This document shows, piece by piece, positions 3,024-13,948 of a stretch of 21,898 nt of DNA; within the stretch, counting starts at the first letter, position 1, and every line of letters begins with the position of its first letter. A program made the translations under genes and the position numbers. The notes beneath the pieces were generated by a model. It saw nothing but the letters and a program-made list of their open reading frames with translations. It did no database searches and was not told where the DNA came from. The stretch lies in IMG/VR virus record IMGVR_UViG_2718218402_000002; one strand, written 5' to 3'. The DNA comes from a virus (Duplodnaviria > Heunggongvirae > Uroviricota > Caudoviricetes).

Positions 3024-3740
3024 TTAAATTCTGGTCCTTACAATATCAACCTGAAGATTCTTATCTTGTGCTGATTGATAAATGACAAACCTTTTACTAC
3101 CTGCATTGAAAGAAGTAGACAAAACCAGACAATTATCATAACGAGCAAGAACATAATACCAACCATCATTATAATTAATCATTTCATATTCTTTCTTAAA
3201 CTGCGGTTTGTAATATCCTGTCAGAAATGAAAAAAGCCAGAAATATGCCACAAAAGCAATCATCACAATCTCAAAAAAATGTTTTTTTATAAATGGCTTA
3301 TCATAGAAGCATGATACCGATAAAAATCGCCCATAAGATCTTATCGAAATTGTAACCGCCAGCGCAATCGCTGCTGACAGTAGCAAAAGAGGTACCTGAA
3401 TCTTCTGTCTCAATATAGAAAACTCAATAATTGCCGGCACAAACAATAATTCCACAGCAAAATAAAGGCGAAATACATTTAGCTCTTGCATAGAATGTTT
3501 TCTTTTCACTGCGAAAAAGAATACAACACCAATACCCCAACCGATAAGAAATATAGCAATGACGATAACTGCAAAAAATAAACTTCTGGCAACATCATCA
3601 ACACCTGCACCTACAATCCACCATGGGAAGCCGTAGTAAAAAGAAGTACCCCATCCATAGAAATAAGCACTCCCCCATCCAAGGCATCCCATGTAGGCAA
3701 TAAAAAGTGAAGAACTCCTGAGCAGTGCACCATCCTTCAT
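3024..3740 (-). CDS. Hypothetical polytopic membrane protein (moron between Q and holin)
   Basis: ORF 3024..3782 (252 aa). Preferred start is the ATG at 3740, preceded by GGGGTGG. Several hydrophobic segments N-terminally and a polar C-terminal domain. Markedly AT-rich versus flanking genes. No family recognised. Confidence 0.6.
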   Translation of the reverse strand: MKDGALLRSSSLFIAYMGCLGWGSAYFYGWGTSFYYGFPWWIVGAGVDDVARSLFFAVIVIAIFLIGWGIGVVFFFAVKRKHSMQELNVFRLYFAVELLFVPAIIEFSILRQKIQVPLLLLSAAIALAVTISIRSYGRFLSVSCFYDKPFIKKHFFEIVMIAFVAYFWLFSFLTGYYKPQFKKEYEMINYNDGWYYVLARYDNCLVLSTSFNAGSKRFVIYQSAQDKNLQVDIVRTRI

Positions 3741-3924
3741 AACCACCCCAATACAAGATGATAACATTGGCTTACAACTCATAACAAAAGCAATTCAATG
3801 CCGTCAAGAGGTTACAGGCTAAAAAAACTCTATTACATTGCAGTCAGCATGTTTACTACACAAATACAATTCAGAGCATAAAAACTACTCGGCGGCAGGT
3901 TATTGAGACTCATCAATGACATGT

Positions 3925-4019: not shown

Positions 4020-4643
4020 CTAACGTGTGATCGCATTCAAAATGTTGTCTGCGATTGACTCTTCCTTGTGGCATTGCACAACCAGAGCGTCATACAGCGG
4101 CTTAACAGTGCGTGACCAGGTGGGTTGGGTAAGGTTTGGGATTAGCATCGTCACAGCGCGATATGCGGCGCTTGCTGGCATTCTTGAATAACCGACGCCT
4201 TTACATCTTCCGCACTCTTTCTCAGCAACTATCCCCCACTGCTCTGTTTTGGCTATATCAACCGCACGGCCTGTACCGTGGCAATCTCGGCATCTTGCGC
4301 CCGGCGTAGCGGCACTACGGCAATAATCCGCATAAGCGAATGTTGCGAGCACTTGCAGTACCTTTGCCTTAGTATTTCCTTCAAGCTTTGCCACGCCACG
4401 GTATTTCCCCGATACCTTGTGTGCAAATTGCATCAGATAGTTGATAGCCTTTTGTTTGTCGTTCTGGCTGAGTTCGTGCTTACCACAGAATACAGCCATT
4501 CCGAATCCGGCTTGTGATTGCGCCATCCCCATAGCAGCCATCACATCAGTACCGGAAAGAGAGTCAGAAGCCGTGGCCCGTGGTGAGTCGCTCATCATCG
4601 GGCTTTTTGGCGAATGAAATTTAGCTACGCTTTCGAGTCTCAT
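4020..4643 (-). CDS. Q: Late antiterminator Q
   Basis: 207 aa, essentially identical to lambda Q as recalled ([29 protein letters not shown]...NILNAITR). Confidence 0.95.
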
Positions 4644-5305
4644 GCGCCTTCTCCCTGTACCTGAATCAATGTGAGGTTTCCGCAGAACACTGCGCCAGTA
4701 TCGATATACATCTGGTTGGCAAATTTGAGTGGTTTCACTGCTGGCGTATGACCAAAGATGAACGTGTCCGCGCCTTTGATTTCTTTCACGATCCCGTCTT
4801 GTGAGTTGCTGATTCGTTCGCGGTTCCAGATTACCTGCTGATGATCAACTGGCTTTCCAAACTCGTATTTATCACAAGGATAATCGGCGTGGCAGATGAC
4901 ATATTTTTTTCCTTTACTCACCAGTTCGATGATTAACGGAAGTTCATCTGCTTTATGGGCAAGAGCTTTAGCCAGAATTTCTTTGTCGTAATCGAGATTA
5001 AAGAACCAGCCACCGCCATTAAGCAGCCAGTGATTGACGTTTCCACGCTCTGATAAGCCATCAATCATCATTTGCTCATGGTTTCCACGTACAACTCTGA
5101 ACCAGGGGAATGTGATTAATTCCAGGCATTCTACGTTCTCTGTACCGCGATCAACCAAATCGCCCACCGAGATAAGCAGGTCTTTTTTGGTGTCGAATCC
5201 TATCGTCTCCAGTTTTTTCATCAGGTTCGTGTAGCATCCGTGCAGATCGCCAACTACCCAAATATTTCGGTATTTGCTGCCATCAATTCTTTCGTAGATA
5301 TTCAT
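4640..5305 (-). CDS. ninI: Ser/Thr protein phosphatase NinI
   Basis: 221 aa with metallophosphatase motifs GDLHG, GDLVDRG and GNHE; matches lambda NinI (orf221). Overlaps the Q start. Confidence 0.9.
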
Positions 5306-5916
5306 GCAACCTCACTTCTGCTATTTCGCAGGTCTTTGAGTTTCTGTTGGTACTCTGCCTTGATCGCCTTGCACTCTTCGACAGTCCAGCGATGGCGGTT
5401 ATGGTTTGATTCGATTTCGTCTACTGCTTCCTGCCCGATTCGGTTAATCAGTTCGACGCGATACGGAACGAGATTTCCGCTTTTATGCTGGTTGCACACC
5501 ACGCATTGCTTGTGAATATTGCGTTCATCAAATCGGAGTTGAGGTGCCGCAGCAGTTGTCCGGTAATGCCCGGCATCCCACTGAGCAGACGTGAGCGTTC
5601 CGCACGAGATACATGGTAAGTCGCGGTCTCTTTCTCTGATGAAGGCGTTTACGGCTTGTTGGGCTTGTTTAATCCAGTAACTGCGGGGCTTTAAGGCGAG
5701 TTTTCGAATCTTAAGTTTATCTTTCTGTTTCTGATCCTCTCGTCGTCGTTTCTTCTCTGCTGCTTTTTCCGCTTTTTCGCGTTCTTTACTTCGTCGTTCG
5801 AGTGCTATCTTGGTTCCACACTCTGGAGAGCACCACCACTGATTAGCGAATGCAGGGTGAAACCATTCCCGACATTCATCGTTTTTACATCGTCTTCGCG
5901 CTGGTTTAGCCATCAT
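5302..5916 (-). CDS. ninG: NinG (Rap) recombination protein
   Basis: 204 aa, Cys-rich, matches lambda NinG. Its stop overlaps the NinI start, leaving no room for a ninH. Confidence 0.9.
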
Positions 5917-6076
5917 CTTCTTCCTCGTGCATCGAGCTATTCGAATCGCTCATCAGCTCTGCGCAGCAGTGCTCACACACGTGAACTTCCAGCACATGCA
6001 GCTTCTGACCGCAGTTAGCGCACGTTAAAGCTCGCTCGACGCTTTCTTGTTCGTAACTTCGATTTTGGTCAATCAC
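5906..6076 (-). CDS. ninF: NinF-like small protein
   Basis: Track ORF 5906..6118. Probable GTG start at 6076 overlapping the ninE stop (GTGA), with GAGG upstream. Cys-rich (CANCGQ...CEHCC). Confidence 0.65.
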
Positions 6077-6255
6077 CTTGTTTTCCTCGCACAATGTCTT
6101 AGCCACCGGATATCCCACAGGTGAGCCGTGTAGTTGAAGGTTTTTACGTCAGATTCTTTTGGGATTGGCTTGCGTTTATTTCTGGAGCGTTTCGTTGGAA
6201 GGTATTTGCAGTTTTCGCAGATTATGTCGGTGATGCTTCGTCGCTGTCTCGCCAC
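6073..6255 (-). CDS. ninE: NinE
   Basis: 60 aa basic protein ([33 protein letters not shown]...), the size and character of lambda NinE. Confidence 0.8.
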
Positions 6256-6395
6256 ACGTCCTCCTTTTCCTGCGGTAGTGGTAACACCCCTGTTGGTGTT
6301 CTTTCACACCGGAGACACCATCGATTCCAGTAAGGTTGCCCGGGTCGAAAGCGATCGTCTTCCTTTCGCTCTCCACATCGATAACAGTGCTTCAT
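6222..6395 (-). CDS. Small zinc-ribbon protein (NinD-position)
   Basis: Track ORF 6222..6413. An ATG at 6395 overlaps the methyltransferase stop (ATGA). CYRCG...CLRC motif. Confidence 0.4.
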
Positions 6396-6982
6396 GCGAT
6401 CACCATTTTGCATGGTTTAATCGCCATGCCGGGAGCCAGTTCAAAATCGGAGTCGCACTGATTGCCCCACATATCCCACCCGGTCACTTTGTCGCGGCTA
6501 AATAACTCACAGCGCGGCACGTCGCCAAGCAACTTAGCTAACATGTCTCTTACGATCGGTGGTTTTGCACTGTGCTCCATTCTCGGTGCGGTAAAGTGCT
6601 GGCATATTGAAGCGTCCATTCTCTCAGGCAACCGCCCTCGAACAGCAAACAAGCAATCCTCGCTATTTGCCCGGGTCATATGCCCCATTCCGATCGCACT
6701 GTTGCCTTTGTGCTTATTGGTTTTGTGCCAGGTAAAGCCTTTCATAGTCATCAACCTGAATCCCCACGACTCAACTACCTTTAGCGCTTCGGCTGGCTGT
6801 GTCGGCACCCACCACATCGCTAACAAGCAAGATTCTGGATCCGCTAAATCCCATACTGGCAGTCGGCAAATGTCCTGAACATTCATAACATCGTATTTAT
6901 GTCCAGCACCGCGATTGCCATCGTTGGCTTTGTCGCGATATTGCCAAGGCGGATCTGCGTAAATAAGTCGGTATTTGTTCAT
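6392..6982 (-). CDS. DNA N6-adenine methyltransferase (MT-A70-like, DPPW motif)
   Basis: 196 aa starting [15 protein letters not shown], the catalytic motif of N6-adenine methyltransferases. Sits where lambda carries ninC. Confidence 0.8.
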
Positions 6983-7419
6983 GCAGCTTTATCTCCCCAT
7001 CGCGCTTTCCATTCCAGAGCCAGTCTCGCTTCGTCTGACCACTTAACGCCACGCTCTGCACCGAATGCCTGTATAAGCTCTAATAGCTCCGCAAATTCGC
7101 CTACACGCATCCTGCTGGTTGACTGGCCTATTACCACAAAGCCATTCCCGGCAAGGTTAGGAACAACGTCCTGCTGCTTTAATGCTGCGGTAAACACACA
7201 CTTCCAGCTTTCTGCATCCAGCCAGCGACCATGCCATTCAACCTGACGCGAAACGTCACCAAGGCAAGCCCAAAGCTTTCGATTCTGGTCTAAGCTGCGG
7301 TTGCGTTCCTGAATGGTTACTACGATTGGTTTGGTTGGGTCTGGAAGAATTTGCTGTACCGCGTGAATAGCGTTTTGCTGATGTGCTGGAGATCGAATTT
7401 CAAAGGTTAGTTTTTTCAT
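6979..7419 (-). CDS. ninB: NinB (Orf) recombination mediator
   Basis: MKKLTFEIRSPAHQQNAIHAVQQILPDPTKP... matches lambda NinB. Start ATG at 7419 preceded by GGGGGAGAGGG. Confidence 0.9.
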   Translation of the reverse strand: MKKLTFEIRSPAHQQNAIHAVQQILPDPTKPIVVTIQERNRSLDQNRKLWACLGDVSRQVEWHGRWLDAESWKCVFTAALKQQDVVPNLAGNGFVVIGQSTSRMRVGEFAELLELIQAFGAERGVKWSDEARLALEWKARWGDKAA

Positions 7420-7436
7420 GACTTCCCTCTCCCCCA

Positions 7437-7466
7437 AATAAAAAGGCCTGCGATTACCAGCAGGCC
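7437..7466 (-). terminator. tR2-like intrinsic terminator
   Basis: On the - strand GGCCTGC-(8 nt)-GCAGGCC is followed by TTTTTATTT. Lies between ren and ninB, the lambda tR2 position. Confidence 0.65.
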
Positions 7467-7492
7467 TGTTATTAGCTCAGTGATGTAGATGG

Positions 7493-7783
7493 TCATCTTT
7501 TAACTCCATATACCGCCAATACCCGTTTCATCGCGGCACTCTGGCGACACTCCTTAAAAATCAGGTTCGTGCTCATCTTTCCTTCCCGTTCTTCCCTGGT
7601 AGCAAACCGGTAATACACCGTTCGCCAGACCTTACCTTCGATAACCAGAAGACCTGCCCGTGCCATTTTAGCCGCGGCCTGATTTATGCTGGTTACTGTT
7701 GCGCCTGTTAGCGCGGCAACGTCCGGCGCACAGAAGCTATTATGCGTCCCCAGGTAATGAATAATTGCCTCTTTGCCCGTCAT
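7493..7783 (-). CDS. ren: Ren
   Basis: 96 aa, matches lambda Ren in size and position after P. Confidence 0.85.
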   Translation of the reverse strand: MTGKEAIIHYLGTHNSFCAPDVAALTGATVTSINQAAAKMARAGLLVIEGKVWRTVYYRFATREEREGKMSTNLIFKECRQSAAMKRVLAVYGVKR

Positions 7784-8481
7784 ACACTTGCTCCTTTCAG
7801 TCCGAACTTAGCTTTGATTTCTGCGATCTTCGCCAGAGCCTGTGCACGATTTAGAGGTCTACCGCCCATGACAGGAAGTTGTTTTACTGGTTCAGGGATC
7901 GCCTCACCACGGTTAATTCTCGCAGTCATATGGACAAGCTCATCTGCGGCCTTACGGCGTAATTCCGCATCAGTAAGCGCATTGGCCCGCATGTTCTGAT
8001 ACAGGTTGGTAACCAGCCAGTAGTGCGCGTTTGATTTCCACGGATAAGACTCCGCATCCGGATACAGGCCTCGCTTCCGGCAATACTCGTAAACCATATC
8101 AACCAGCTCGCTGACGTTTGGCAGTCCGGCGATAACGGATGCTTCTTCCCGGCACCATGCAACAAACTGCCCGGGTGATGGCAGAAATGGTCGATTCTGC
8201 CGACGGGCTACGCGCATTCCTGCGTTAACCTGTTCCATTGTGGTGATCCCGTTTTCCCGGAAAGCCAGAACCCACTGGCGGCGGATTTCGTTCAGTTCGT
8301 TCTGGTCACGGTTAGCCAGACTCGCCGGGAAAGTTGCCAGTAACTGGCTGAACACACCGTTGATGATCTGCGCTACCTGCTGTACCTGCGGCTTTTCGTC
8401 GTACTGTTCCGGCATGTTGTTGGCGATCCGACGCATCTGCTCACGGTCAAAGTTAACCATCTGTGCGGCGATGTTTTTCAT
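7780..8481 (-). CDS. P: Replication protein P (DnaB loader)
   Basis: 233 aa, near-identical to lambda P as recalled (MKNIAAQMVNFDREQMRRIANNMPEQYDEKPQ...). Confidence 0.95.
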   Translation of the reverse strand: MKNIAAQMVNFDREQMRRIANNMPEQYDEKPQVQQVAQIINGVFSQLLATFPASLANRDQNELNEIRRQWVLAFRENGITTMEQVNAGMRVARRQNRPFLPSPGQFVAWCREEASVIAGLPNVSELVDMVYEYCRKRGLYPDAESYPWKSNAHYWLVTNLYQNMRANALTDAELRRKAADELVHMTARINRGEAIPEPVKQLPVMGGRPLNRAQALAKIAEIKAKFGLKGASV

Positions 8482-9377
8482 AAATCCACCCCGTAAATCC
8501 AGTCAGTGTTTGTCAGGTCGAGTTTTGGTTTGCTGGCTGTCACGCCTGCCTGTTGCTTGTTACGGTTGATTTCGAGCTGGGTCCACTTGTCGCGGAGTTT
8601 GGCCGGGCTCAGCACGTTACCGGACCAGAAGTTGTCCTGGCATGCCCAGCGGAACAGTACGCACATGTCGCGATGGTTACGTCCGTCACGTTCACGCATC
8701 AGGCGGATATCGTTAGCCCACCCTGCAAAATTCGGTTTTCTGGCTGATGGCGCGATGGTCTTCACCATGTCAAACATCCACTCTGCGGCGGTCAGGTCTT
8801 CTGCTGTTCCCCACTTGCTGCCGCTCTGAATTGCAGCATCCGGTTTAACCACAGAAAGATCGTTTTCTGGCTGGTCAGAGGATTCGCCAGAATTCTCTGA
8901 CGAATAATCTTTTCTTTTTTCTTTTGTAATAGTGTCTTTTGTGTCCCCCTGTTTTGAGGGATAGCAATCCCCCAATTTGAGGGATGTTTTATCCCTCGTT
9001 TTAGGGGATTTTCCCTCGTTTTGAGGGATACACCATTCTGAGATGTTTTTATTTGGTCCAAACATGCCGCCTTGCTGCTTGATAATATTCATTCTGACGA
9101 GTTCTAACTTGGCTTCATTGCATCGTTTGACAGGTAACTTTGTAATCTCGCTAAGTTGAGAATCGGTGATTCTGTCCATAGGTTTATTCCACCCATAGGT
9201 TTTACGCAGAATGGCAAGCAGCACTTTAAACTGTCGCTTGGTCAGATCTGCGCCCGAATAAGCCTCAAGCAGCATATTTGATAGTCTGGCGTAACCATCA
9301 TCGAGATCTGCCACATTACGCTCCTGTTCGGCAAAGTTACCTCTGCCGAAGTTGAGTATTTTTGCTGTATTTGTCAT
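8478..9377 (-). CDS. O: Replication initiator O
   Basis: 299 aa, near-identical to lambda O (MTNTAKILNFGRGNFA...). Contains the origin iterons. Confidence 0.95.
   Translation of the reverse strand: MTNTAKILNFGRGNFAEQERNVADLDDGYARLSNMLLEAYSGADLTKRQFKVLLAILRKTYGWNKPMDRITDSQLSEITKLPVKRCNEAKLELVRMNIIKQQGGMFGPNKNISEWCIPQNEGKSPKTRDKTSLKLGDCYPSKQGDTKDTITKEKRKDYSSENSGESSDQPENDLSVVKPDAAIQSGSKWGTAEDLTAAEWMFDMVKTIAPSARKPNFAGWANDIRLMRERDGRNHRDMCVLFRWACQDNFWSGNVLSPAKLRDKWTQLEINRNKQQAGVTASKPKLDLTNTDWIYGVDL
8944..9030. repeat. ori-lambda iterons (four ~19-bp repeats) with adjacent AT-rich tract
   Basis: Four tandem repeats of the form TCCCTC-gtttt-GAGGGA at 8944-8963, 8968-8986, 8991-9009 and 9011-9030; AT-rich stretch at about 8905-8940. 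All inside O. Confidence 0.85.
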
Positions 9378-10055: not shown

Positions 10056-10125
10056 CGTACTTTCAGTACGCATTATGATTGAACTGAAAGTTTTTGCAAG
10101 TGCTTTAGTATCGTACTCATGGTTC
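10056..10125. promoter_or_regulatory. OR region: three 13-bp palindromic operators with divergent pR and pRM
   Basis: GTACTTTCAGTAC (10057-10069), GAACTGAAAGTTT (10081-10093), GTACTCATGGTTC (10113-10125, over the cI ATG). Candidate pR on - strand: -35 TTGCAA (10094-10099), -10 CATAAT (revcomp of 10072-10077). Candidate pRM -10 TAGTAT (10106-10111). Confidence 0.55.
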
Positions 10126-10826
10126 AGAATGAAAAAGTGCGCAAAGAATTCGCCCAGCGGCTAGCGCAAGCCTGTAAAGAAGCTGGTCTTGATGAACATG
10201 GTAGGGGAATGGCCATAGCCCGTGCCCTTTCTCTTTCGTCCAAAGGCGTTAGCAAATGGTTTAATGCTGAGTCTTTACCACGCCAGGAAAAAATGAATGC
10301 GCTTGCGAAATTTCTAAACGTTGATGTTGTTTGGCTTCAGCACGGCACTTCGTTAAATGGAGCGAATGATGAAGATACTTTTTCAATTGTTGGCAAATTA
10401 AAAAAAGGGTTAGTGCGCGTGGTTGGTGAGGCAATTCTTGGTGTTGATGGTGCCATCGAGATGACCGAAGAGCGCGATGGGTGGCTCAAGATTTATAGCG
10501 ATGATCCAGATGCCTTTGGTCTTCGTGTAAAAGGAGACAGCATGTGGCCCAGAATTAAATCAGGAGAATATGTACTCATTGAGCCTAACACCAAAGTATT
10601 CCCAGGTGATGAAGTGTTTGTCAGAACCATTGAAGGGCACAACATGATCAAGGTTCTTGGCTATGACAGAGACGGAGAATACCAATTTACAAGCATCAAT
10701 CAAGACCACAGGCCAATAACGTTGCCTTATCATCAAGTAGCAAAGGTGGAGTATGTGGCTGGTATTTTGAAGCAATCTCGCCACCTAGATGACATCGAGG
10801 CAAGGGAATGGATTAAAAGTTCGTGA
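10119..10826 (+). CDS. cI: CI prophage repressor (HTH plus S24 LexA-like autopeptidase domain)
   Basis: 235 aa. C-terminal domain has the GDSM Ser motif and downstream Lys typical of RecA-stimulated autocleaving repressors. The ATG sits inside the third operator, suggesting a leaderless pRM transcript. Confidence 0.9.
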   Translation: MVQNEKVRKEFAQRLAQACKEAGLDEHGRGMAIARALSLSSKGVSKWFNAESLPRQEKMNALAKFLNVDVVWLQHGTSLNGANDEDTFSIVGKLKKGLVRVVGEAILGVDGAIEMTEERDGWLKIYSDDPDAFGLRVKGDSMWPRIKSGEYVLIEPNTKVFPGDEVFVRTIEGHNMIKVLGYDRDGEYQFTSINQDHRPITLPYHQVAKVEYVAGILKQSRHLDDIEAREWIKSS

Positions 10827-10923: not shown

Positions 10924-11466
10924 GTGGCTAAAAAAGGCGACTTTAAGCCTACCCAGAAAGAGGTTGACCAAGCTATTACTCGCTTGAAAAAAGTAACTTT
11001 TAGCGGAGTTTCGTGGACCGGAAGTGAGGGACGAACCCCAATCTGGTTTAAATTGGATCTCAAAGCTTTTGATGAAATTGGCAACCCAATCACAGGCATA
11101 AGATTTATGCTTCACTGGCGTTCTCCTATCGTTGAAGGGGTGGATATAGTGAAGCTTTCATTTGTGATGTTTCTTCATGACAGGCGCATTTACGCGCTTG
11201 ACCCGTACCCTGCGCATAACAAGTCACACCGTAATAAATCTATAGTGCACCATCCAGATTTTGTTGAGGTGGCTCGAGGTCCTCACTATCACATGTACTT
11301 CGAATCAGCTGGGGAAGAAATTGCACTCAAGCTTGAAACGAACATCAAGCCAGATGATTTTTTTGGCTACTGGAATTATTTTTGCGAGGCGCTTAATATC
11401 ATATATGAAGGCAGCCCACCTTTACCGAATCAAGATAAATCAGGTCAGCTATCATGGGAAATGTAA
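10924..11466 (+). CDS. Hypothetical protein A of the cI-downstream cassette (rexA-position)
   Basis: 180 aa ORF with GTG start and no obvious SD; the first in-frame ATG would give 119 aa. His-rich segment HNKSHRNKSIVHHPDF...PHYHMY. No family recognised. Lower GC than neighbours. Confidence 0.5.
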   Translation: MAKKGDFKPTQKEVDQAITRLKKVTFSGVSWTGSEGRTPIWFKLDLKAFDEIGNPITGIRFMLHWRSPIVEGVDIVKLSFVMFLHDRRIYALDPYPAHNKSHRNKSIVHHPDFVEVARGPHYHMYFESAGEEIALKLETNIKPDDFFGYWNYFCEALNIIYEGSPPLPNQDKSGQLSWEM

Positions 11467-12230
11467 CGTGTTCAACAGTCATATCTAAGCTCGGGTTTGA
11501 ATGCCACCCAATGAGCGACACGTTGCTGCGCGTTATTAGTCCCTTCACATACTACGATGATTGTGAGCAGATAAGCGTATTCGTTCAAGAGATGAGTGGT
11601 CAGTATAGGGTTACAGACTACTGCGATACATTGATGAATATTGAATCACGCGGCATCCACCTGACTAAAAAGAAAATTGATCTGATCAGGTCATCACTCG
11701 CTTCGCAAGGAATTTCATTAAATGACTCTGGAGAGATATCTGCGTGGGCAGATGAGTCGTCCGTTGGACAGGTAACTGCAAATGTTATTCGTGGTGGGAT
11801 TCTTGCATCCGCCCAAACTGCTGATTGGTATGCTGAGGTCAAAGACGATAAGTTCGAAAAATGTGTAATCAGTTACTTAAAATCAGCAGGGCTTGGGAAG
11901 CGACTAGCCTTAAAGGAAAAAGTGAAAGGTATTAGTGGGCATAACATTACTGTTCCGTTAACGCTAAGGAATGAGTCTCGACTAATACCACCAAAACGCG
12001 GGTTTACGGTAAGCCTTGCCAGCAGTAAAGGATGGAATACTGCCCACTCAACAGTTGGGAAGATTGTTGACTTAAGTCAGGTCGTTCCTGACATAAACAA
12101 TAGATTTGTAATAGTTGACAGCGATGGGTTAACACCTGAGCTACAGCAACTATCACTACTATTTAATGATACCGCACGAGTGTTGCCATTCCATACCAGA
12201 GACTCTTGGATTGACTCTCTGGTAGCCTAG
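11454..12230 (+). CDS. Hypothetical protein B of the cI-downstream cassette (rexB-position)
   Basis: 258 aa. The ATG at 11454 overlaps the stop of protein A by 13 nt (alternative ATG at 11511). Soluble-looking, no family recognised. Confidence 0.55.
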   Translation: MGNVTCSTVISKLGFECHPMSDTLLRVISPFTYYDDCEQISVFVQEMSGQYRVTDYCDTLMNIESRGIHLTKKKIDLIRSSLASQGISLNDSGEISAWADESSVGQVTANVIRGGILASAQTADWYAEVKDDKFEKCVISYLKSAGLGKRLALKEKVKGISGHNITVPLTLRNESRLIPPKRGFTVSLASSKGWNTAHSTVGKIVDLSQVVPDINNRFVIVDSDGLTPELQQLSLLFNDTARVLPFHTRDSWIDSLVA

Positions 12231-12555: not shown

Positions 12556-12673
12556 AACAGATACCAAACGAGATGGATTTGGCGGTGATGTGAATTGCAG
12601 CTGCAACGACAGCAACCAGAAGATCAGCATCTGGCACATCACCCCCAAAGCCATTTCACATGAGGAAAACATC

Positions 12674-13009
12674 ATGACGGTAATCGTGTACGGGAAATCA
12701 ACATTTGCAGGAAATGCCAAAACTCGCCGTCATGAGCGGCGCAGAAAGCTGGCTATCGAGCGTGATGCTATATGCAACATCATCGATTCGATCTTCGGCA
12801 CAGACAGTGAGGAACCTGTTCAGGAAGCCCCGAGAAAACGTTTAAGCCTTTCTGAAAAAGCAATATCACTCGGAAGCCTTCGCTGCCAGAAGGCAGAAGA
12901 AGTCGAGCGTAAACAGAACCGTATTTACTACCGCAAGCCACGCAGTGAAATGGGTGTGACTTGTGTTGGTCGCCAGAAAATGAAATTAGGCAGCAAACCA
13001 CTTATTTGA
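12674..13009 (+). CDS. N: Antiterminator N (P22 gene 24-like)
   Basis: Track ORF 12590..13009; ATG at 12674 preceded by GAGGAAAA. N-terminal arginine-rich motif GNAKTRRHERRRKLAIERD matches the P22 N RNA-binding motif as recalled. Confidence 0.85.
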   Translation: MTVIVYGKSTFAGNAKTRRHERRRKLAIERDAICNIIDSIFGTDSEEPVQEAPRKRLSLSEKAISLGSLRCQKAEEVERKQNRIYYRKPRSEMGVTCVGRQKMKLGSKPLI

Positions 13010-13288: not shown

Positions 13289-13324
13289 TGGTGGCCTTTA
13301 TTTTCTTATTTGAGAGGAATTAAT

Positions 13325-13948
13325 ATGTCATCAATCCGCTTAACTACGAGAATGAAAGAGGAAATCGCTCGTAACGCTTTAATTAAGTCTGGGGTTTTCA
13401 CTGAACTTGAAGAAGTAACAAAGTTAAAGAACCAGCTTGCACTTGACGCCAGAGTTATTGCGTTTGGCGGGAAAAAGAAAACCGAAGAAGTGGACCAGCT
13501 GGCATCAAAGTTAATGGCTGCAAGTGAGGAACTTCAAAAGCTTGGATGTTCATTTTACTCATGCGATGTCAGTTCAAGTTCGATTTATCTGACTGTATCT
13601 GGAAGAAGGGTTGGCTGGCATTCATACGGAAAAGACGGCAACGGTGAAGATATATTGCTCCCTACCCCCGACAAAGATAAATGCATGTTTGACGCAGAAC
13701 ACAAAATAACAAAAAGGTTTGATGAAATCTGCGCATTGCAACAAAAACTTGAAGCCAGGAAAAAGGATATCGAATCAAATGTATGGGCTGCTTTGAACTC
13801 AGTCACAACAGTTAAGCGACTTATTGAGGTCTGGCCTGAAAGCAAAGAGTTGCTACCAAAAGAAGCAGATAAAGCAAGTGCAGCACTTCCTGCTTTACGG
13901 GTAGAAGATTTGAATAAGATGATTGGACTTCCTTCCGAGGCCGCATAG
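13325..13948 (+). CDS. Hypothetical early-left protein (207 aa)
   Basis: Track ORF 13310..13948 (TTG); likely ATG at 13325. Predicted coiled-coil N-terminal half. No family recognised. Confidence 0.55.
   Translation: MSSIRLTTRMKEEIARNALIKSGVFTELEEVTKLKNQLALDARVIAFGGKKKTEEVDQLASKLMAASEELQKLGCSFYSCDVSSSSIYLTVSGRRVGWHSYGKDGNGEDILLPTPDKDKCMFDAEHKITKRFDEICALQQKLEARKKDIESNVWAALNSVTTVKRLIEVWPESKELLPKEADKASAALPALRVEDLNKMIGLPSEAA

Follow-up and report, generated by a model that had tools for sequence, protein, structure and literature searches.

An MT-A70 family methyltransferase cassette, probably Dam-like, in the ninB–ninD slot of a lambdoid prophage

Small orphan methyltransferases of the MT-A70 family are carried on mobile elements, among them PhiBZS1_p32 of a Serratia phage with its 75%-identical relative, HK639 gp35, and M.EfaBMDam of Tn1549. 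In a dam− host, DNA methylated by PhiBZS1_p32 is resistant to MboI and sensitive to DpnI (PMC7556043), and M.EfaBMDam has been reported to be GATC-specific (as cited in PMC7556043). A third member of the same family, M.EcoPA8orf6770P/M.EcoGV of Stx2 phages, is disputed, with reports of a GATC DNA methylase on one side and of a PNB-2-dependent 16S rRNA methylase on the other. M.EcoGV methylated GATC in vivo only on over-expression, in the account that PMC10810198 gives of Fang 2012; PMC6602927 also gives GATC as its specificity. In vitro, the activity of purified M.EcoPA8orf6770P on dam− DNA was near background (Gong, Chakraborty and Koudelka, 2023, PMC10810198); it binds PNB-2 1:1, and the complex prefers 16S rRNA and 30S subunits (PMC10810198).

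Other points of comparison come from the nin region of lambdoid phages. Between ninB and ninD, lambda carries ninC, whose product is a PAPS-reductase-like protein of 290 aa and not a methyltransferase. Phages 434, SfI and HK140 have a methyltransferase in this slot, and in phage 21 the slot is empty, with ninB adjoining ninE. The enzyme of the 434, SfI, HK140 and VT2-Sa type (PF05869, 'Dam' phage N-6-adenine methyltransferase) is also an orphan encoded directly after ninB, but it belongs to a sequence family unrelated to MT-A70, has an NPPY motif and a length of 175 aa, and is followed by ninE without ninD.

We analysed a stretch of 21,898 nucleotides from a Caudoviricetes virus (IMG/VR record IMGVR_UViG_2718218402_000002), referred to here as the 21.9-kb window. 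In its nin region, an MT-A70 family gene occupies the place that ninC has in lambda:

6392..6982, minus strand: orphan MT-A70 family methyltransferase gene, with an ATG start and 196 aa, stop codon counted in (ORF listing)
6944..6955, minus strand: DPPW codons (catalytic motif IV, residues 10–13); the reverse complement reads GATCCGCCTTGG, that is, D P P W
6979..6982, minus strand: ATGA overlap of the ninB stop (TGA) with the methyltransferase start (ATG), seen in the sequence
6392..6395, minus strand: ATGA overlap of the methyltransferase stop (TGA) with the ninD start (ATG); the minus-strand reading is ...ATCGCATGAAGCACTGT
6993..6996, minus strand: GGAG, a putative Shine-Dalgarno-like element within the 3' end of ninB; minus-strand reading ATGGGGAGATAAAGCTGCATGA, 10 nt to the ATG
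6398..6978, minus strand: cassette-specific DNA without lambda homology, in place of lambda ninC (blastn against lambda, 434 and 21)

An initial annotation, made from the letters of the window, had described a 196-aa DPPW-motif N6-adenine methyltransferase at 6392–6982 and had left its assignment between the MT-A70 and Dam families to an HMM search. The coordinates are exact, the strand, which it did not give, is minus, and the family is MT-A70 and not Dam. The Pfam profile PF05063 (MT-A70) is covered over positions 1–172 of 172 (E = 3.8e-25; 89.2 bits, cut-off 23.9) and is the sole Pfam match of the protein. The protein also matched phrog_359 'DNA methyltransferase' (E = 1.8e-106) and the PADLOC model MTase_II (Type II methyltransferase, E = 5.4e-70); a search of NCBIfam matched no model. 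PF05869, to which the 434 enzyme belongs, was not among the Pfam matches of the protein, and tblastn with the 434 enzyme gave no match in the window.

The motifs stand in permuted order, with DPPW near the N terminus followed by S138-x-K140-P141 and E159-L-F161-x-R163. In an alignment of 41 homologues (members 68–98% identical), 58 columns show no variation, among them D10, P11, W13, S138, K140, P141, E159, F161 and R163, and P12 of DPPW is conserved at 90% or more. Among solved structures, the best sequence matches are ciliate MTA1 (5e-11) and human METTL3 (2e-6), and the DPPW, S-x-K-P and E-[LI]-F-x-R motifs align with those of MTA1. Foldseek against the PDB likewise returned METTL3 and MTA1 chains (E ~5e-11, probability 1.00, TM 0.61–0.68); the query, an AlphaFold model built from 41 close homologues, has a low mean pLDDT of 60 and served for the fold-level search only, not for the active site. 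We saw no obvious separate target-recognition domain in the 196 aa. From these motifs and matches, the protein is predicted to be a small stand-alone MT-A70 family enzyme of the N6-adenine type, with beta-class motif order and SAM dependence. Since the nearest folds are those of an RNA enzyme, METTL3, and a DNA enzyme, MTA1, the fold leaves the substrate undecided.

The gene is under purifying selection. Compared with its allele in Cronobacter sakazakii (92% aa and 85% nt identity), dN is 0.055 and dS is 0.85, giving a dN/dS of 0.065; the ratio is usable for this allele only, synonymous sites being saturated for the Erwinia, Hafnia, Salmonella, Stx and Pantoea comparisons. The 6392..6982 ORF is a real, intact gene, neither a remnant nor a chance frame.

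The borders of the cassette are sharp. In blastn, ~96% nucleotide identity to lambda runs up to position 6397 and resumes at 6979, the DNA in between having no match, and over 6979–7600, ninB included, identity is 96.6%. Because lambda homology breaks at 6397 and 6979 and ninC fills the gap in lambda, the methyltransferase gene is an exact junction-to-junction replacement of ninC, flanked by the same ninB and ninD. Together with the Pfam matches to NinB and NinD, these breaks bear out the earlier placement of the gene where lambda has ninC. The GGAG element sits in DNA shared with lambda, so the ribosome-binding site would be supplied by the slot.

Around the slot, the window has the layout of the lambda early-right operon, all on the minus strand:

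8478–9377, minus strand: replication protein O
7780–8481, minus strand: replication protein P
7493–7783, minus strand: ren-like gene, 96 aa; no Pfam match, named from the lambda annotation of homologous DNA
7444..7467, minus strand: tR2-like intrinsic terminator hairpin between ren and ninB; by scan, a stem of 8 pairs, 6 of them GC, then TTTTATTT
6979..7419, minus strand: ninB (Orf-type recombination mediator), the upstream gene; PF05772, E = 1.8e-54
6222..6395, minus strand: ninD, the downstream gene; PF17466, E = 5e-39, and NinD in the annotation of RefSeq relatives
6073–6255, minus strand: NinE
downstream of NinE and before NinG, minus strand: NinF
5302–5916, minus strand: NinG
4640–5305, minus strand: NinI-type phosphatase
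4020–4643, minus strand: antiterminator Q

The neighbours of the methyltransferase gene are thus NinB, NinD, NinE, NinF and NinG, with no adjacent nuclease gene, and the enzyme is an orphan, as first described. A terminator is annotated at the position of the tR2-like hairpin in phages 434 and 21, and by position it is the counterpart of lambda tR2. Our promoter scan found no minus-strand promoter-like site upstream of the gene; its only minus-strand site, at 6250–6221, lies downstream. With a tR2-like terminator upstream and no promoter-like site of its own, the gene would depend on pR and on N antitermination for its transcription, and such N-dependent readthrough would make it delayed-early and silent in a lysogen. 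A pR transcript that crosses the terminator by means of N would give methyltransferase during lytic replication and none in the lysogen. The initial annotation had put the gene in the delayed-early operon, which agrees with its position downstream of the tR2-like terminator and makes N-dependent expression a reasonable expectation. It had also called the gene translationally coupled to ninB. The ATGA overlap is there and is compatible with coupling, but an overlap is no proof of it; through it, translation of the methyltransferase is probably coupled to that of ninB.

We compared the slot across 5,426 complete E. coli genomes, of which 1,286 have lambda-type ninB (at least 80% coverage). Among the same 5,426, the 434-type Dam gene has 1,540 carriers, lambda-type ninC 149 and the MT-A70 gene 38, so that PF05869 Dam is ~40 times commoner than the MT-A70 gene (1,540 versus 38); in the places shown, the PF05869 gene lies directly after ninB. 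By these counts, ninB is usually followed by a methyltransferase, of which the MT-A70 version is the uncommon kind. This suggests that the slot serves to carry a DNA adenine methyltransferase, from one family or another.

All 38 E. coli copies (at least 80% coverage and at least 98.5% identity) are annotated as MT-A70 family methyltransferase; strains NCTC8623 and AR_0058 are among the carriers. RefSeq WP_073514669.1, 'MT-A70 family methyltransferase', from E. coli 382634_2f is identical over 591 of 591 nt, and the gene order there is 'recombination protein NinB', MT-A70, 'protein NinD'. The gene is identical in that prophage, but the prophage mosaic differs, matching at 99.7% over 5800–7496 only of the 5800–7600 compared. 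No evidence of a linkage to Nmad5 emerged: with 210 genomes carrying Nmad5 and 38 the methyltransferase, ~1.5 would have both by chance, and at least 2 do among the matches listed (60 of 211 Nmad5 records).

Outside E. coli, Erwinia phage vB_EhrS_59 encodes a '6N-adenine methylase' (AXH43583.1) of ~195 aa, 80–82% identical to the window protein, directly after a NinB-like gene. The NinB-then-MT-A70 pair, joined by a 4-base ATGA overlap as in the window, recurs in prophages of Cronobacter sakazakii and Pantoea cypripedii. The Erwinia, Cronobacter and Pantoea orthologues are 80–92% identical in amino acid sequence, whereas the neighbouring NinB proteins are 26–67% identical and the downstream genes differ. 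That the methyltransferase is better kept than the adjacent NinB suggests that the cassette travels independently into the same slot. The window gene and these orthologues form a nin-region MT-A70 group, all after NinB and mostly ATGA-overlapping.

More distant relatives lie elsewhere. Those at 64–75% identity (in Stx2 phages, SPNIS2, a Salmonella prophage and Hafnia phage yong1) adjoin int at the opposite end of the early region; SPNIS2 is a Salmonella epsilon15-like phage. Identity to the window protein is ~64% for the Stx-phage enzyme, 49% for the HK639 enzyme and 42% for the Tn1549-type enzyme, an ordering by identity alone in which the 42% is for the Tn1549-type protein on pMG2200, whose identity with M.EfaBMDam is assumed from its context. 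HK639 gp35 has a 24-residue insertion and is encoded near int, and the Tn1549-type enzyme lies inside a conjugation module; neither is in a nin region.

The comparison with the Stx2-phage enzyme, M.EcoPA8orf6770P/M.EcoGV, shows both a shared core and a different setting. The two proteins are 63.6% identical over 187 aa and share DPPW, S-x-K-P and ELF-x-R, and a primer in PMC10810198 encodes 13 residues that match the Stx-phage protein compared here. The Stx enzyme has 208 aa and a distinct C-terminal tail (its last 27 aa), whereas the window protein ends 12 residues earlier; the alignment diverges past a conserved PG, and the window protein has no match to FLEKTNERKNDVDKGITS. The Stx gene lies 1–2 kb from int, near int/xis at the pL operon end, and is co-transcribed with PNB-2 upstream of it, whereas the window gene, in the nin region, lies beyond tR2 and directly follows NinB. 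Tblastn with phi191 PNB-2 found no homologue in the 21.9-kb window (best E = 0.59), the same search with the phi191 antirepressor and downstream ORF returned nothing in the window, and no PNB-2-like neighbour was present at the non-Stx loci examined. We rejected the idea that the Stx-phage homologues are M.EcoGII, which has a DPPY motif and 349 aa and comes from a different family (PMC5778455); the window protein has DPPW and matches MT-A70 only.

By homology, the window protein falls among the Dam-like MT-A70 subgroup of M.EfaBMDam, PhiBZS1_p32 and M.EcoGV. Since these three GATC-specific relatives span the subgroup that holds it, parsimony favours GATC, and so does the analogy with the PF05869 Dam enzymes of the slot. 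We infer that DNA is the substrate, and the most likely activity, judged from homology and analogy, is probably a Dam-like adenine methylation of GATC in double-stranded phage DNA. The full reading, an MT-A70 enzyme in a ninB–ninD cassette that is expressed lytically under N control and methylates GATC in phage DNA, is the one that we favour, with moderate confidence. GATC itself is depleted in the window, at 45 sites observed against ~103 expected (0.44), so that the enzyme would have fewer sites to protect, a point against a GATC role. Similar depletion is found in E. coli prophage regions generally (PMC6602927), and we dropped it as a clue to specificity because it does not discriminate.

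Methyltransferases that are 60–70% identical can differ in specificity. Such shifts are frequent at this level of identity (an example is in PMC6602927), and the enzyme could instead be a DNA adenine methyltransferase with a non-GATC motif or with relaxed specificity, giving broader anti-restriction cover. Non-specific enzymes do exist, such as M.EcoGII of an E. coli prophage (PMC5778455) and PhiOS31_p25 of a Serratia phage (PMC7556043), and the window protein, at 196 aa, is very small and shows no evident recognition domain of its own. However, those enzymes come from a different family (M.EcoGII is a DPPY protein of 349 aa), and the three characterized prokaryotic MT-A70 relatives that our literature search found are all reported as GATC-specific (PMC7556043, PMC10810198). 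We consider a departure from GATC unlikely, though a credible alternative.

A methyltransferase acting on RNA is, in our estimate, quite improbable. Like the holoenzyme of M.EcoPA8orf6770P and PNB-2 in Stx phages, such an enzyme would modify 16S rRNA or other host RNA and tune translation during phage growth. In its favour, the closest characterized relative (63.6% over 187 aa) is reported to prefer 16S rRNA and 30S subunits (PMC10810198; follow-up preprint 10.1101/2023.09.20.558713), and the solved neighbours METTL3 and MTA1 are divided between RNA and DNA. However, targeting of rRNA in that system needs PNB-2, of which the window has no homologue, and the window protein is without the C-terminal tail that the authors tied to PNB-2 binding (PMC10810198). 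The Stx system is also reported to be active from the prophage in lysogeny, whereas the window gene stands behind tR2 in a lytic operon. The missing partner, the missing tail and the lack of PNB-2-like neighbours at the other, non-Stx loci make rRNA methylation a minority rival to the DNA reading.

For the nin-region group as a whole, a broader proposal is that these partner-less MT-A70 enzymes are not simple Dam mimics but have RNA as their substrate, or else the single-stranded DNA or recombination intermediates of phage replication. METTL3-METTL14 has been reported to prefer ssDNA over ssRNA (PMC7544214), and this preference and the rRNA preference of the Stx relative would both fit, but we hold the proposal to be very doubtful. 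Least probable by far is a decayed or non-catalytic remnant without methyltransferase activity, the outcome that the initial annotation had set against its own proposal: the gene is rare (38 of 5,426 genomes) and prophage genes can be dispensable, but the frame is intact with a full-length Pfam match, the catalytic and SAM-pocket motifs are all invariant, dN/dS is 0.065, the protein is 80–92% conserved across genera against 26–67% for NinB, and 38 of 38 E. coli copies reach at least 80% coverage and at least 98.5% identity.

If the enzyme is a GATC methylase, its use in a Dam-positive host calls for an explanation. Host Dam can be limiting for fast-replicating DNA, and hemimethylated GATC is a substrate of MutH and SeqA; these two facts would give a phage reason to have a GATC methylase of its own, although the benefit of a second one beside host Dam is an argument. 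Replicating phage genomes would stay fully GATC-methylated while host Dam is limiting, and the fully methylated DNA would escape the action of MutH and SeqA on hemimethylated sites. Restriction systems whose target is unmethylated GATC may also be unable to cut the progeny DNA. For orphan methyltransferases of phages, protection against restriction is the usual hypothesis, and it is plausible here. The initial annotation had extended this protection to modification-dependent defence, which does not follow because m6A is what such systems detect, so that added m6A would expose the DNA.

As a discovery, the gene carries little weight. It had been picked out as notable, but as phage adenine methyltransferase genes go it is ordinary: E. 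coli lambdoid prophages most often have a methyltransferase behind ninB, public annotation already covers this exact gene with its family and placement, and orphan enzymes of this kind are common in phages. Its interest lies in comparison. As an MT-A70 enzyme without a partner, it is a natural counterpart for the disputed Stx-phage relative, and it adds to a picture of the lambdoid slot downstream of ninB as a site of interchangeable cargo, which may be filled by methyltransferases of unrelated families, by NinC, or by nothing.

GATC is strongly depleted across the whole window, with 45 sites found against approximately 103 expected under a maximal-order Markov model (ratio 0.44). Among 4-base palindromes, only CTAG ranked ahead of GATC in depletion. 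One of the GATC sites (6952–6955) falls within the codons for the DPPW motif of the methyltransferase, and another (6398) lies at the junction between the methyltransferase gene and ninD.

The pL operon contains a gene with a predicted role in nucleotide modification a short distance downstream of N:

12590–13009, N gene
13310–13948, + strand, Nmad5 protein gene (212 aa; PF18757, E = 1.3e-69)

Nmad5 is predicted to function in nucleotide modification; Dhillonvirus phages evade Tmn defence through a point mutation in this protein (PMC11846954). We found Nmad5 in 210 of the 5,426 E. coli genomes. Nmad5 and the MT-A70 methyltransferase shared one prophage, approximately 6–7 kb apart, in at least two genomes among the matches listed (382634_2f and JNE131328), which is about the level expected by chance; 151 of the 211 Nmad5 records fall outside those matches.

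Two overlapping genes lie directly 3’ of the cI-like repressor gene:

10119–10826, cI-like repressor gene
10924–11466, + strand, first gene of the pair (180 aa; weak DUF6978 match)
11454–12230, + strand, second gene of the pair (258 aa; DUF1828, E = 2.6e-10; PADLOC candidate-defence PDC-M24B, 6e-7)

In lambda, this position is occupied by rexA and rexB. The pair may constitute a prophage-encoded defence cassette.

The interval between Q and the lysis genes, a site of cargo genes in many lambdoid phages, contains two further ORFs:

3024–3782, − strand, 252-aa ORF
2301–2699, + strand, 132-aa ORF

Searches of Pfam and PADLOC returned no match for either ORF. Their apparent counterparts in the prophage of E. 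coli 382634_2f, matched by position and similar length alone, are annotated in RefSeq as ‘hypothetical proteins’.

Relatives of the methyltransferase are present at the following loci of two phages:

L005 2428–4304, MT-A70 enzyme and preceding gene of the epsilon15-like Salmonella phage VB_ST_SPNIS2
L006 4368–5432, nin-region locus of Erwinia phage vB_EhrS_59

The SPNIS2 enzyme has 75–78% identity to that of the window and carries approximately 80 additional amino acids at its C-terminal end. The preceding gene, which overlaps it, encodes a 355-aa DGQHR-domain (DndB-like) protein, and the two may form a two-gene modification module, unlike the arrangement in the window. In the nin region of vB_EhrS_59, an MT-A70 adenine methylase is followed approximately 0.8 kb downstream by a cytosine-C5 methyltransferase; several orphan methyltransferases can therefore gather in one nin region.
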